IMG/VR virus record: IMGVR_UViG_3300028596_000009
Span: 102,824-166,823 of that record
Strand: one strand, 5' to 3'
Origin: a virus
Length of the DNA: 64,000 nt
Shown one piece after another: positions 29,761 to 48,379 of this stretch. Position numbers and translations under genes: made by a program. Positions within the stretch are counted from its first letter, which is position 1; the number at the start of each line of letters is the position of its first letter. Under the pieces are notes generated by a model that saw only the letters and a list, made by a program, of their open reading frames with translations, was not told the DNA's origin and made no database searches.

Positions 29761-30297
29761 TCAGCTACCGCAGATGCCGACCTGGACGATGCCGTCCGAC
29801 GACTCACCCTGCGCGTAGAACACGACCTCCATCTGCACCGGCGCCGTGGCGTCGTTGACGACGTTGGGGTCGCCGGACAGGAACTTGAACACGGTGATGT
29901 AGTCGCCGTCCGCCGCGTCCGGAACGTTGCGCGGGTGCTTGCCGATGCGCTGCACCAGGTAGCCGGGCTGGAGCGGCGTCTTGAACAGCTCCAGCGCCTC
30001 GTTGTACACCGACTCCGGCTTCGCGTCGCCGAGGTCCCGGTCGAGGAAGAAGTTGAGGGTGCCCTCGTAGTTCTTCTTCGTGGGGTTGGCCACGTTGGCG
30101 TCGTCGCACAGACCACCGGTGTCGTCGGTGTCGCGCTCGGTCCAGCCCAGCGTCAGGTCGGTGGTGAGGGCGCAGGAGATGTTCACACCCGCGTTGATCT
30201 CCGCCGCCGTCGGGCAGTTCACGTTCGCGATGCCCGCCGGGATGGGGACCCACCACACGGTCACATTTGGGGGCAACATTTTCACTTCGTTTGCCAT
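29761..30297 (-). CDS. Major tail tube protein
   Basis: PTAAEINAGVNISCAL, GYLVQRIG motifs typical of actinophage tail tubes; strong codon bias. Confidence 0.9.
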   Translation of the reverse strand: MANEVKMLPPNVTVWWVPIPAGIANVNCPTAAEINAGVNISCALTTDLTLGWTERDTDDTGGLCDDANVANPTKKNYEGTLNFFLDRDLGDAKPESVYNEALELFKTPLQPGYLVQRIGKHPRNVPDAADGDYITVFKFLSGDPNVVNDATAPVQMEVVFYAQGESSDGIVQVGICGS

Positions 30298-30399
30298 TGG
30301 TGGGTTCCCTTCGTGATCTCACCAGTGGTTTCGCCACACGAGGCAGCACGGTCTTCTGGTGAAGTCTAGATCGTCAGCCAGTATTGATGTCGGTACAGC

Positions 30400-30427
30400 A
30401 AAAAGCCCCCGACCGAAGCCGGGGGCC
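30400..30427 (-). terminator. Intrinsic terminator after the HNH gene
   Basis: GCCCCCGG-CTTCGG-TCGGGGGC-TTTTT on the minus strand. Confidence 0.8.
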
Positions 30428-30443
30428 TTGTGGAGGGTCAGGG

Positions 30444-31166
30444 CTACTTGCTCGCCCGCCAGTTGCGCTTCTTCTCGTTCACGCACGCACGACAGCGGCG
30501 GCGATTGCCTTCGCGAATCGTGTTCGCCTCGTCGTACGGGTGACCCTTCGGGCAGTGGGTTCTGAGGGTCTGATACCCACCCTTGCCCAGCTCGGGCTTG
30601 AGGCCGTGACGCTCCCTGTAGGTACGCGTCCGGTCAGCGCCATTGATCAGCGCCTCGACCTTCTTGCAGGCAAGACACTGCCGATGCCCGTCGGGCGTGA
30701 CATACGTGTTCGCTTCGTCGTACGAGTGACCCTTCGGGCACTTCTGCTTGCGAGCGTTCTGGGCCGTCGGGGCAACTCCCCGAAGCGTGTTCACCTTCTG
30801 GGTGACCGGCTCCAGATGGGCAGGGTTGCAGCAGGGCCGCATGCGGCACCGGTGGTCGAGTTCGAGACCTTCCGGAATGGGCCCCACCAGGAGTTCGTAG
30901 GCGTAGCGGTGGACCCTGACCATCGCTCCGGCGGCGATGCGGAAGACTCCGTAGCCACCATTGTTCAGGGCCCCGCCCCACATCCAGCACTCACCCTCTC
31001 CGGCCTTGTGGAGGTAGGCGTAGAAGCGCTTTTCATCAGAGCCGATGATCTTCGTCGACCTGGCGGGACGGTAGAGCTTGGTGTGCTTCTCGTAGTGCGG
31101 GGTGCACATACCCCACTTGTCGACCGACCCGAAGCAGTTGTCGTGCCAGCACGTACGATTGACCAT
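30444..31166 (-). CDS. Free-standing HNH homing endonuclease
   Basis: CWMW.G...GYG...HRYAY...LDHRC...CCNPAHL..VTQKVN; two C-terminal CPKGH.YDEANT...C.AC repeats. Confidence 0.9.
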   Translation of the reverse strand: MVNRTCWHDNCFGSVDKWGMCTPHYEKHTKLYRPARSTKIIGSDEKRFYAYLHKAGEGECWMWGGALNNGGYGVFRIAAGAMVRVHRYAYELLVGPIPEGLELDHRCRMRPCCNPAHLEPVTQKVNTLRGVAPTAQNARKQKCPKGHSYDEANTYVTPDGHRQCLACKKVEALINGADRTRTYRERHGLKPELGKGGYQTLRTHCPKGHPYDEANTIREGNRRRCRACVNEKKRNWRASK

Positions 31167-31284
31167 GTTGCGTCTCCTAACGCAGCCCGGCCCCGGAGTG
31201 TGTCCGCACTCGCGGGGCCTCTTGGTGAGAACAGTACACCCAAATCGCGGGCCGAATGGCCGGTAATTTCAAGGCCGTTACTAT

Positions 31285-31320
31285 TTGGTGGGTTCCAGGC
31301 ACCCACCAAACGGTGACATT
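31285..31320 (-). repeat. Permuted copy of the major tail gene 5' region (codons 11-18 plus RBS spacer)
   Basis: 31297-31320 matches 30244-30267 at 20/24 nt with all mismatches synonymous; 31285-31296 is identical to 30297-30308. Confidence 0.85.
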
Positions 31321-31328
31321 GACGGCTC

Positions 31329-31808
31329 CTAGCTGGAGTATCCGCTTCCGGTGGGTGCGGTATTGCCGACGACGCCGGAGAAGAAGATGGCCTTGTAGAA
31401 CCTGAGGCCCACGCCGATACCAGTAGGCAGCGGGTCACGGACGGCCGTCACACCGCCCTCGGCGAGTTCTCCCTGTCCGGCTGGCTGGAAGCCGGTGAGG
31501 ATGCTGCGGATCCTGTCCTCGAACTGGAGCAGCGACAGGCCGTTCGGCGCGACGACCTCCAGGGCGAAGGTGGCGGTTCGTGCGGACATGCCGGAGCCGA
31601 AGCCGCACAGGTCGCCGCTCTGGGTGCCGGTGAGGATGTCGGTGAGCTGGCCGAACCAGAGGATGGCGAAGGGCTTCACGAAACCCTGCGGATCGATGGG
31701 GATGTCGCTGGACTCCGGCACACCCTCCAGGAAGACCTTGTTGTTCGGCACGCCGCGCACGATCTCCTCGTAGATCGCGGTCTGCCAGTTGATGATCGAC
31801 TTGGTCAC
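31329..31808 (-). CDS. Tail terminator protein
   Basis: Size and position before the major tail gene; GGAGG RBS, GTG start. Confidence 0.7.
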   Translation of the reverse strand: MTKSIINWQTAIYEEIVRGVPNNKVFLEGVPESSDIPIDPQGFVKPFAILWFGQLTDILTGTQSGDLCGFGSGMSARTATFALEVVAPNGLSLLQFEDRIRSILTGFQPAGQGELAEGGVTAVRDPLPTGIGVGLRFYKAIFFSGVVGNTAPTGSGYSS

Positions 31809-31812
31809 GGGG

Positions 31813-32226
31813 TCACCGGCCGCCGAGCCTGGAGCGGAGCTGGGCCAGGACCATGTTGTAGGCGTCGAACACGGCATACATCGGCTCGATGCCCTTACGT
31901 GTGCCGAACTCCTGGAAGGGCGCGTAGTACGGCGCCATCTCCTCCCAGCCGAAGCTGATCTTCAGGATGTCGGTGCCGAAGTCGCCGGTGCCCGTCACCT
32001 GCCTCTTCATGGCACCGGTGTCGACCCTCGACTTGGCCCGGACGATGCCCTCTCCCCGGCGCCGCATGTTCGACATGTCGAGGATGAGCTGCCTGCGCGT
32101 CTTGTTCAGGTGGTCAATGACGAAGTCGTCCAGTGCCGCGTCCTGCGGACCGTGCGGGGAGCCGCCGCCGTAGTACCGCTGACCACCGCCGAAGCGGTAG
32201 TTGTACTTGAACTCGAAGCCCGTCAT
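31813..32226 (-). CDS. HK97 gp10-like tail completion/neck protein
   Basis: RVDTGAM...YAPFQEFGT motif. Confidence 0.8.
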   Translation of the reverse strand: MTGFEFKYNYRFGGGQRYYGGGSPHGPQDAALDDFVIDHLNKTRRQLILDMSNMRRRGEGIVRAKSRVDTGAMKRQVTGTGDFGTDILKISFGWEEMAPYYAPFQEFGTRKGIEPMYAVFDAYNMVLAQLRSRLGGR

Positions 32227-39190: not shown

Positions 39191-39223
39191 AAGACAGACA
39201 GTACAGGTCTTTGACCGGGAAAG

Positions 39224-48064: not shown

Positions 48065-48379
48065 ACTCCACCACCCCTACTGTTTCCAGTACTGCTTCCT
48101 TGCTTCCATGATCTGTCACAGGAAGCACTGCCTGTCGATGGAAGCGGGTGGAAGCGGGTTGACCTGGGGGTTTCCTCGGGAAAGGAAGCAGCGCCCGGCT
48201 GGATGAGCAGAGGGTTTCCTCGCGTTGGCGATGTTGCCATGTCGCGCTGCCGGGCGCTGTGGAAGTGACGAGGAAACAGTACACCCCAGGAAGCAGCGAC
48301 GACCCTCACCGGTTCGGCGGGGCCGTCGTGTCCTGCATTCGAAGTCCGACTTTCCCCTCAAGGAATGGCCCGGAATTCG

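Follow-up and report, generated by a model that had tools for sequence, protein, structure and literature searches.

Here we describe a locus in a stretch of viral DNA of 64,000 nt (the window, taken at its full length) in which the gene for an HNH endonuclease stands between a virion gene and the major tail gene, and in which short look-alikes of a tail-gene site, here called boxes, are found at the upstream edge of the nuclease cassette. All of the features lie on the minus strand and are listed in the direction of transcription.

31329–31877, minus strand: upstream virion gene of 182 aa and unknown function, an open reading frame (ORF) matching PHROG 14948.
31337–31357, minus strand: degenerate inverted box GCACCCACCGGAAGCGGATAC, with one core mismatch, within the 3' extension of the upstream gene.
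31297–31320, minus strand: tail-sense box C', AATGTCACCGTTTGGTGGGTGCCT, which reads NVTVWWVP and is conserved in relatives L013, L014, L015 and L019.
31277–31296, minus strand: inverted box GGAACCCACCAAATAGTAAC, whose reverse complement reads VTIWWVP; 3' arm of a hairpin with C'.
31231–31238, minus strand: TGTACTGT, -10-like promoter element of the HNH gene, assigned from its genome copies and its position in relatives.
31189–31219, minus strand: conserved hairpin 2 (GGCCCCG-C-GAGTG, loop, CACTC-CGGGGCC), a predicted fold directly 5' of the ribosome-binding site.
30444–31166, minus strand: HNH_3 (His-Me finger) endonuclease gene, 240 aa, assigned from Pfam, PHROG, homologue alignment and structure match.
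30400–30427, minus strand: intrinsic terminator, ancestral, directly 3' of the upstream gene in HNH-free relatives.
30363–30375, minus strand: GACGATCTAGACT, promoter-like element of the tail gene, conserved and ancestral, a single copy in the genome.
30297–30308, minus strand: GGAACCCACCAA, the copy at the tail ribosome-binding site; core of the box motif in inverted orientation.
30244–30267, minus strand: tail codons 11–18 (NVTVWWVP), the putative homing site from allele comparison.
29761–30297, minus strand: major tail (tail tube) gene, 178 aa (PF25595, 110 bits; PHROG 2491).

The nuclease matches the HNH_3 profile (PF13392) over residues 84–127 with 44.1 bits, against a curated cut-off of 24.8, and PHROG 826 ('HNH endonuclease') with E = 4e-57. 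Residues H86, H105, C107, C112, H117 and N126 are invariant across 21 homologues, and D104 and N114 are kept at 90% or more. The protein has a zinc knuckle at its N terminus, an HNH core and a CPxGH...CxxC zinc-ribbon module in two repeats, and its gene contains an internal 36-nt repeat (D1). The best fold matches, to I-HmuI and I-PpoI, are weak (Foldseek, E about 0.1), and a sequence search of the nuclease against solved structures gave no significant match. By these signatures the product of 31166–30444 is an HNH_3 (His-Me finger) endonuclease, with a predicted site-specific nuclease activity. The gene lies between two ORFs, outside any intron or intein, with a ribosome-binding site, a -10-like element and a leader of its own, and Rfam gave no intron or other match. 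The TGTACTGT element has 6 copies in the genome, each 49–219 nt upstream of a long ORF, and a TAnnnT element is found at the matching place in the other cassettes. All 11 cassettes have hairpin 2, and compensatory changes occur in it: L019 has AAGC/GCTT, and L017 and L020 have an A-T base pair.

Within the window, C' (31320–31297, AATGTCACCGTTTGGTGGGTGCCT) and tail codons 11–18 (30267–30244, AATGTGACCGTGTGGTGGGTCCCC) are identical at 20 of 24 bases, the 4 mismatches (bases 6, 12, 21 and 24) all fall on third codon (wobble) positions, and both stretches read NVTVWWVP. The 12-mer GGAACCCACCAA has exactly 2 copies in the window, at 31296–31285 and at 30308–30297, where its last A is the A of the tail ATG. 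C' and the box that follows it are predicted to form a hairpin of 10–11 bp (-23.8 kcal/mol, z = -3.2). The wobble-only copy, its junction with the spacer of the tail ribosome-binding site and the hairpin between the two parts had been pointed out in an earlier note on this DNA, and are all confirmed. A direct 20/24 pair within 1.5 kb amounts to about one chance event per window (0–2 in shuffles), so the significance of the boxes derives from their clustering and their conservation in relatives and not from this pair alone. The 9-mer ACCCACCAA has 3 copies in the 166.8-kb genome, all in the same 1.1 kb (shuffle mean 1), and the 8-mer counted beside it has 13 genome copies, 4 of which are in the 1.1-kb region. 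The tail ribosome-binding site GGAACCCACCAA belongs to an untranslated-region haplotype common to this genome, L013, L014, L015 and L023, and is predicted to be able to pair with tail codons 15–18 in the mRNA. A weaker copy of this motif is present in the HNH-free L006, and the copy at the ribosome-binding site may for that reason be an unrelated mRNA feature.

Relatives were drawn from a protein database and from contig look-ups, and include 11 related HNH_3 cassettes (45–89% aa identity), all at this same locus; it is shared by homologues at 89, 75, 72, 61, 63, 59, 56 and 45% identity, and likewise by L008 and L030. A scan of viral contigs with the nuclease protein gave no matches, and none of the isolated phages in GenBank has this cassette at this locus. 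One to three boxes (20–23 nt look-alikes of the NVTVWWVP codons) are found at the upstream edge of 10 of the 11 cassettes, where they overlap the stop codon of the upstream gene or lie no more than about 50 nt from it. They occur in either orientation (one tail-sense and one inverted in five lineages, two inverted in two, a single inverted box in three), with at least one inverted box in every box-bearing cassette. Boxes accompany intact nuclease genes, and are absent from five lineages that lack one, including L031 with its nuclease relic. The most distant cassette, L022 (45% identity), has a different tail site and lacks both a box and a mimic of that site; a second HNH_3 gene in L020 is nearly leaderless and lacks a mimic.

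The information profile of 16 boxes consists of conserved T5, A7, C8, T11, a core, C22 and C23, with bases 6, 21 and 24 free. The boxes thus hold codon positions 1–2 and drift at wobble positions, giving a three-base periodicity, and carry a conserved box-specific T at bases 9 and 12, unlike the presumed sensitive tail allele. The leader between boxes and promoter cannot be aligned among cassettes. Box and tail within one genome usually disagree at 4–5 wobble bases; the comparison with HNH-free relatives that the earlier note had proposed came out as predicted, in that C' matches the tail allele of L005 at 22/24 bases and its own tail gene at 20/24. The bases of the boxes that correspond to wobble positions are rich in A and T, against a share of only 6–11% A- or T-ending codons in tail genes; the boxes are therefore not translated, and tail genes do not refresh them.

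Several other explanations of the boxes were considered and rejected. Recurrent gene conversion from tail genes does not fit A/T-rich box wobbles beside tail codons that are 89–94% G/C-ending. An ORF of 12 codons begins inside C' in the window, behind a good ribosome-binding site, but starts, frames and peptides are unconserved in L013, L014 and L015; a -1 frameshift leading out of the upstream gene into the reading frame of C' lacks a slippery site. A pseudo-target at the insertion point was dropped, since the sequence in which the upstream gene ancestrally ends (GGCAACACCACCTGA) resembles the box poorly by eye. As a separate observation, the C' frame is open up to the nuclease ribosome-binding site in the window and in L014.

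Presence and absence of the cassette can be followed among close relatives. L005 and L006 are without the nuclease gene and have a 98–99% identical tail protein. L018 and L006 are 97.7% identical over 2789 nt, followed by a clean 872-nt insertion; the insertion distinguishes L018 and L027 from L006 and L026, with flanks 97.7–99.4% identical, and its left junction is the end of a box. The one near-isogenic pair with and without the gene is L027 and L026, which over the 1096 nt 3' of the insertion differ only at wobble bases in tail codons 12–14; L008/L031, tried as a second such pair, are only about 88% identical and too diverged. The resident tail site of the window has 2 wobble differences from the HNH-free allele, GTC to GTG in codon 12 and GTG to GTC in codon 17. 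The codon 17 wobble is G in 3 and non-G in 1 of the gene-free lineages, and G in 1 and non-G in 7 of the gene-carrying ones (one-sided Fisher exact p about 0.07, computed by hand on related lineages); a link between this wobble state and gene presence is suggestive only, the lineages being few and phylogenetically related.

In L031 only a relic of the nuclease is left, fused to the upstream gene, and in L006 the nuclease ORF survives as its final 8 nt; the comparison indicates that this locus has undergone repeated gain and decay of the nuclease gene. The upstream gene ends in GGCAACACCACCTGA in relatives and instead reads GGCAATACC followed by GCACCCACCGG...TAG in the window, such that its last ~9 codons (from about 31357) are cassette edge, entered after loss of the ancestral stop codon; the box at 31337–31357 within them and the first box of L018 (L018 2789–2810) are homologous. 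HNH-free genomes, too, have the terminator (30427–30400), the tail promoter GACGATCTAGACT and the first ten tail codons, none of which was therefore supplied by the cassette. Thus the terminator formerly assigned to the cassette exists, but is the ancestral one of the upstream gene; the first ten tail codons, described as unusually AT-rich, are indeed A/T-rich, and are so in HNH-free relatives as well.

We favor, with moderate confidence, the interpretation that the cassette encodes a free-standing HNH_3 homing endonuclease targeting the tail gene, and that the boxes are putative target-mimic binding sites which limit its own production. The nuclease gene is inserted between the stop codon of the virion gene and its terminator, about 200 nt upstream of the tail gene. 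The homing site would be tail codons 11–18, encoding N-V-T-V-W-W-V-P, a stable target because the two Trp codons cannot vary, and gene-carrying genomes would evade cutting through synonymous changes in this site. The boxes would be double-stranded DNA binding sites of the same nuclease, preserving exactly the bases (codon positions 1–2) on which its recognition of any tail allele would depend, with free wobbles except for the box-specific T's at 9 and 12, which may block cleavage. Nuclease bound to the boxes would hold down transcription of the cassette, whether this enters from the late genes upstream or starts at the cassette's promoter, resulting in negative feedback of the I-TevI kind. The nearest box core is 65–87 nt upstream of hairpin 2, or about 40–60 nt upstream of TGTACTGT; since the boxes are off the -10-like element, simple promoter occlusion as in I-TevI is inapplicable. 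Of the readings offered in the earlier note, whose interpretation is partly supported overall, an operator mimicking the homing site is the one best supported by the comparative data, with the amendment that the boxes are 40–60 nt upstream of the -10-like element and not on it.

The boxes could instead be portable cleavage-resistant repair templates (an "immunity patch"), with a break in the still sensitive tail site of a newly entered genome repaired from a box, and the essential tail gene thereby recoded with its protein left unchanged. The tail allele of L027 differs from that of its HNH-free twin only at codons 12–14, which are the box-type GTA ACT GTT, three consecutive A/T-ending codons (6–11% in the gene) in a stretch 20/20 identical to the tail-sense box of L015, and such a role would also explain the retention of all non-wobble bases in boxes. 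We consider it unlikely: a break inside 20–24 nt of homology leaves only about 10 nt per side, which is very short for recombination, the boxes of L027 itself read TTC and GTT and none has the exact tail states, and the usual differences at 4–5 wobble bases between box and tail within one genome imply that conversion is rare at best. That the boxes have a second role beyond binding, as a protein-neutral repair template rewriting the sensitive tail site to a resistant synonymous form, would likewise account for the preserved non-wobble bases and the three consecutive rare box-type codons of L027, and is quite doubtful.

It is improbable that the boxes act as RNA, either through a C'/inverted-box hairpin that terminates, processes or stabilizes the upstream late transcript, or through pairing of the ACCCACCAAA strand with the tail mRNA (ribosome-binding site or codons 14–17), which would tune tail synthesis. 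The stability of the hairpin in the window, the TTTTT that follows it in L014, the inverted box found in every box-bearing cassette, and a minimum-energy fold that pairs the tail ribosome-binding site with codons 15–18 are consistent with action as RNA. However, five lineages (L017, L018/L027, L020/L021, L008 and L030) lack an inverted pair and hence the hairpin, conservation reaches past any stem and tracks codon phase, pairing with the genome's own tail mRNA is broken at every third base, and the tail 5' region folds no better than shuffles (z = -1.1).

A further possibility, which we consider distinctly improbable, is that the boxes are sites nicked or cut on the phage's own genome, the breaks stimulating recombination or replication around the cassette and thereby its inheritance, as a cis-acting homing enhancer. 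HNH intron endonucleases like I-HmuI nick intron-containing and intron-less DNA alike, and the boxes are orientation-independent and lie right at the border of the mobile segment, one of them ending at the left junction of the 872-nt insertion; but the conserved T9 and T12 differ from the presumed sensitive allele, which looks like protection from cleavage.

Very unlikely, and already contradicted by the conservation pattern, is the suggestion that the copy is a leftover of the original insertion, such as a duplicated 5' end of the tail gene from entry of the cassette there, which is decaying and no longer has a function. C' does resemble the tail alleles of HNH-free genomes more closely than the resident one, and the remnants in L031 and L006 attest to gain and decay at the locus. 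Boxes nevertheless persist across cassettes with 56–75% identical proteins while the adjoining leader is unalignable, inverted-only arrangements occur (five lineages), and neither the tail ribosome-binding site nor codons 1–10 precede C'. The fuller form of this reading, in which a new promoter and a recoded 5' end also came with the element, is largely refuted by the presence of the terminator, GACGATCTAGACT and codons 1–10 in HNH-free genomes. Also disfavored, and scarcely conceivable, is a guide-like RNA made from the leader that steers the nuclease to competitor tail alleles: it has sequence similarity alone in its favor (22/24 between the window's tail-sense box and the L005 tail allele), whereas the boxes agree with no tail allele at the wobble positions (most mismatch the sensitive allele at 4–5 of 20 bases, every third base) and lie upstream of the promoter-like element, the conserved structured RNA and base-for-base guide of IscB/OMEGA-like systems are not seen (an unalignable leader, no adjoining conserved scaffold, no Rfam match), and the protein, with its DNA-binding zinc-ribbon repeats, has none of the domains known from RNA-guided nucleases.

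For a homing endonuclease with target-mimic sites, the closest known parallel is the autorepression of I-TevI, without the promoter overlap. I-TevI of the phage T4 td intron has an autorepression operator (2004 work reviewed in PMC2988022). As in that system, a look-alike of the homing site is found upstream of the endonuclease ORF (in 10/11 cassettes), and the boxes would be expected to be bound but poorly cleaved, with negative feedback as the proposed outcome. Unlike I-TevI, which is intron-encoded and of the GIY-YIG family, the enzyme is a free-standing HNH_3 protein; one to three boxes in either orientation stand at the cassette edge, whereas the I-TevI operator overlaps the promoter; and the mimicry follows codon phase.

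Free-standing homing endonucleases that spread by "intronless homing" include the Seg proteins and MobE of T-even phages (PMC2988022, PMC2790892). The present gene resembles theirs in lying between conserved genes with its own expression signals, in an inferred target within a neighboring essential gene and away from the insertion point, in its presence or absence among close relatives, and in target polymorphisms of gene-carrying genomes (here in one near-isogenic pair). It differs in its actinophage-type, high-G+C genome and in the major tail gene as the inferred target. We know of no report of operator-like target mimics at Seg or Mob genes. A catalytic core of the His-Me finger type is shared, by a weak structural match, with I-PpoI and with I-HmuI, the HNH nickase of an SPO1 intron (PDB 1U3E); here, two or three CPxGH...CxxC zinc-ribbon repeats are found in place of NUMOD or helix-turn-helix modules.

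L027 and L026 provide a clean natural before-and-after pair with candidate cleavage-resistance bases. If the boxes are binding sites of the nuclease, the target of an uncharacterized homing endonuclease could be read from the leader of its own gene, and the three-base periodicity would be a natural footprint of the bases read, codon positions 1–2 of a conserved peptide. To our knowledge, I-TevI is the one well-studied case of self-control through a target mimic, and the same principle would then extend to free-standing HNH_3 enzymes of actinophage-type genomes.

The window belongs to a 166.8-kb IMG/VR virus contig, to which the large Streptomyces phages Kela, Satis and Frankenweenie are distantly related (~70% nt identity). 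The HNH_3 endonuclease gene lies in a group of minus-strand genes with the following order:

31877-31329, minus strand: virion gene, function not assigned; first in the local order, upstream of the HNH_3 gene
31166-30444, minus strand: HNH_3 endonuclease gene, between the virion gene and the major tail gene
30297-29761, minus strand: major tail gene, downstream of the HNH_3 gene
After the major tail gene, minus strand: tail chaperone and tape-measure genes

Between phages, the nucleotide identity of the tail gene (29761-30297) is 93-100%, its first 100 nt being the least conserved part, while the flanking genes and the HNH gene are only 67-88% identical. The high identity could result from strong codon bias or from a recombinational sweep.

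At the upstream edge of the cassette (the nuclease gene with its leader) lies C' (31320-31297, minus strand), a look-alike of tail codons 11-18 (30267-30244, encoding NVTVWWVP). The coordinates and sequences of the earlier note are exact on re-reading the window: 20 of 24 bases agree, with all four mismatches at third codon positions, and C' is directly followed by GGAACCCACCAA, which occurs a second time at the tail ribosome-binding site and folds with C' into a stable hairpin (-23.8 kcal/mol, z = -3.2). The 9-mer ACCCACCAA occurs three times in the whole genome, each time within the same 1.1 kb. By chance alone, about one 20/24 pair within 1.5 kb would arise per window, and we take the feature to be real because comparative data from relatives settle the question. 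As predicted, C' is nearer the HNH-free tail allele (22/24) than the resident tail gene (20/24).

L005 and L006, two viral contigs with a 98-99% identical tail protein, lack the nuclease gene. In these, a G+C-rich terminator stands directly after the upstream gene, which ends in GGCAACACCACCTGA; GACGATCTAGACT comes next, and a variable untranslated region separates it from the tail gene. The window's terminator (30427-30400), previously assigned to the cassette, is homologous to theirs, as is its promoter-like element (30375-30363) to their GACGATCTAGACT element, and both are therefore phage-owned rather than cassette-owned. GACGATCTAGACT (30363-30375, upstream of the tail gene) is near-invariant (one base varying) in all close relatives with or without the HNH gene, is single-copy in the window's genome, and probably serves as a promoter for the tail gene alone. 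The first ten tail codons (MANEVKMLPP), common to the window and HNH-free relatives and diverged in Kela, are A/T-rich as noted earlier, but their A/T-rich wobble bases are also present without a nuclease gene. The inserted segment spans ~31357 to ~30440; the ancestral stop codon of the upstream gene was lost in the window by a small deletion, and this gene now runs on for nine more codons in the cassette edge.

Sequences resembling the tail site GTnACnnTnTGGTGGGTnCC, here called boxes, are present in one to three copies in 10 of 11 cassettes, directly 3' of the upstream gene's stop codon or overlapping it. Five lineages have a sense and an inverted box, giving a hairpin, two have two inverted boxes, and three have a single inverted box, which in the related contig L020 is the full 23-nt AACGTCACGGTGTGGTGGGTACC. 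No boxes were found in genomes without an intact nuclease gene (five lineages). Conservation was scored outside the box core, the stretch used to find boxes. In 16 boxes, the equivalents of codon positions 1 and 2 outside this core are kept (T5, A7, C8, T11, C22 and C23 of the 24-nt site), while bases 6, 21 and 24 are free, and T predominates at bases 9 and 12, where it is rare in tail genes. At wobble-equivalent positions the boxes are rich in A and T, in contrast to tail genes, where 89-94% of codons have G or C in third place; the boxes are therefore neither translated nor maintained by copying from tail genes. Judging from their sequences, selection maintains them, acting on those bases that do not vary among tail alleles, and their orientation independence points to recognition as double-stranded DNA.

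Tail codons 11-18 are the probable target, on the following evidence. Contigs L018 and L027 (gene present) and L006 and L026 (gene absent) are near-isogenic, with 97.7% identity across 2789 nt upstream, then an 872-nt insertion. The next 1096 nt differ at three positions only, the third bases of tail codons 12, 13 and 14 (GTC ACC GTG in L006/L026, GTA ACT GTT in L018/L027, the latter being three consecutive rare A/T-ending codons). With a background divergence of ~0.5%, three changes inside this pre-specified 24-nt window would be very unlikely by chance. The new states match the box version of contig L015 at 20 of 20 bases. All nuclease-adjacent tail alleles and all boxes depart at base 12 or 21 from the GTG-TGG-TGG-GTG of L005/L006, a post hoc rule from few lineages; we hypothesize that these bases are candidate cleavage determinants.

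In contig L008 (3028-3075), an inverted pseudo-copy, TGGTGGGTACCTGAGGACCCCACCAGTA, lies within the tail gene directly after the tail site, and is similar to the box hairpin of the window's leader; it belongs to the stretch WWVP-EDPTSTPPKP-GIANVN, which stands in place of the window's shorter IPA. The HNH-free contig L031 has the same peptide with other codons and no inverted copy.

From the boxes to the promoter region, the leaders of different cassettes do not align with one another. TGTACTGT, a candidate -10 motif of phage promoters, stands downstream of the last box, at a distance of some 40-60 nt. Each of its six genomic copies (window 31231-31238, 39198-39205 and 48276-48283, and three sites elsewhere in the genome) precedes a long ORF by 49-219 nt, the terminase gene being one of these ORFs. 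In the cassette the motif is followed by a hairpin kept in 11/11 cassettes with compensatory changes, a small stem around the ribosome-binding site, and the nuclease ORF. The nuclease has a zinc knuckle at its N terminus and an HNH core; its zinc-ribbon repeats of the form CPxGH...CxxC, two here and three in some homologues, are plausible modular DNA readers. Its structure model (mean pLDDT 84.5) gives I-HmuI and I-PpoI as best matches, both weak. A 36-nt direct repeat (94% identical, 30519-30554 and 30705-30740) within the HNH gene encodes both CPKGH.YDEANT zinc-ribbon modules.

We propose that the gene encodes a free-standing homing endonuclease whose site would be the Trp-Trp-containing stretch of the tail gene, with the boxes as target mimics bound but uncut by the enzyme. 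Because the ancestral terminator comes after the insertion point, late transcription arriving from the virion genes must pass into the cassette; enzyme bound right at the entry could stop this incoming transcription while sparing the upstream gene, providing negative feedback on the nuclease. Binding, cleavage and repression are steps that we infer. The boxes are proposed to work like the operator of I-TevI, which shares 15 of 20 bases with the I-TevI homing site (PMC2988022), but one defining feature of that system fails because the boxes here do not overlap a promoter.

A self-nicking recombination enhancer is another, less likely, candidate role for the boxes. The box-type codons in L027's tail gene also suggest a repair template, although so short a homology puts a strain on this mechanism. 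Roles at the RNA level are contradicted by conservation that follows codon phase and by the inverted-only arrangements, given which an RNA hairpin cannot be the conserved feature. Box conservation likewise contradicts a plain relic of insertion, one reading in the earlier note, and the guide RNA proposed there is contradicted by the wobble mismatches between boxes and tail alleles, the location of the boxes ahead of the promoter, and the lack of a scaffold.

The motif copy at the tail ribosome-binding site has an unproven link to the nuclease. From promoter element to start codon, the tail 5' untranslated region (window 30298-30362; L005:2922-3000; L006:2923-3000) has three unrelated haplotypes among otherwise close relatives. 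The copy is part of one of these, with a weaker form in the HNH-free L006; in two of the three versions the ribosome-binding site carries CCACCA or ACCCACCA, either of which is complementary to the Trp-Trp codons, and the copy may simply pair with these codons in the tail mRNA.

Protein homologues of the nuclease (89, 75, 72, 61, 63, 59, 56 and 45% identity) are all encoded between the same two genes, which also flank two further cassettes in contigs L008 and L030. In L020 (at 1740-2342), and likewise in L021, the same virion operon contains a second, shorter HNH_3 gene, further upstream by one gene. At L006:2851-2858, directly after the upstream gene's stop codon, GCAAGTAG corresponds to the last eight bases of the L018 HNH ORF, and L006 probably lost the nuclease gene by deletion. 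In L031 (1218-1847), an HNH gene has been lost except for its last zinc-ribbon module, which is now fused to the upstream virion gene as its 3' end (BLASTP match to the window's HNH, E = 2e-8). The same relic occurs at L008:1290-1931 and L030:284-925 together with a fresh intact HNH gene, so more than one invasion of the locus must have taken place. As read from these sequences, the cassette is old and tied to one locus, which displays the life cycle typical of selfish genes.
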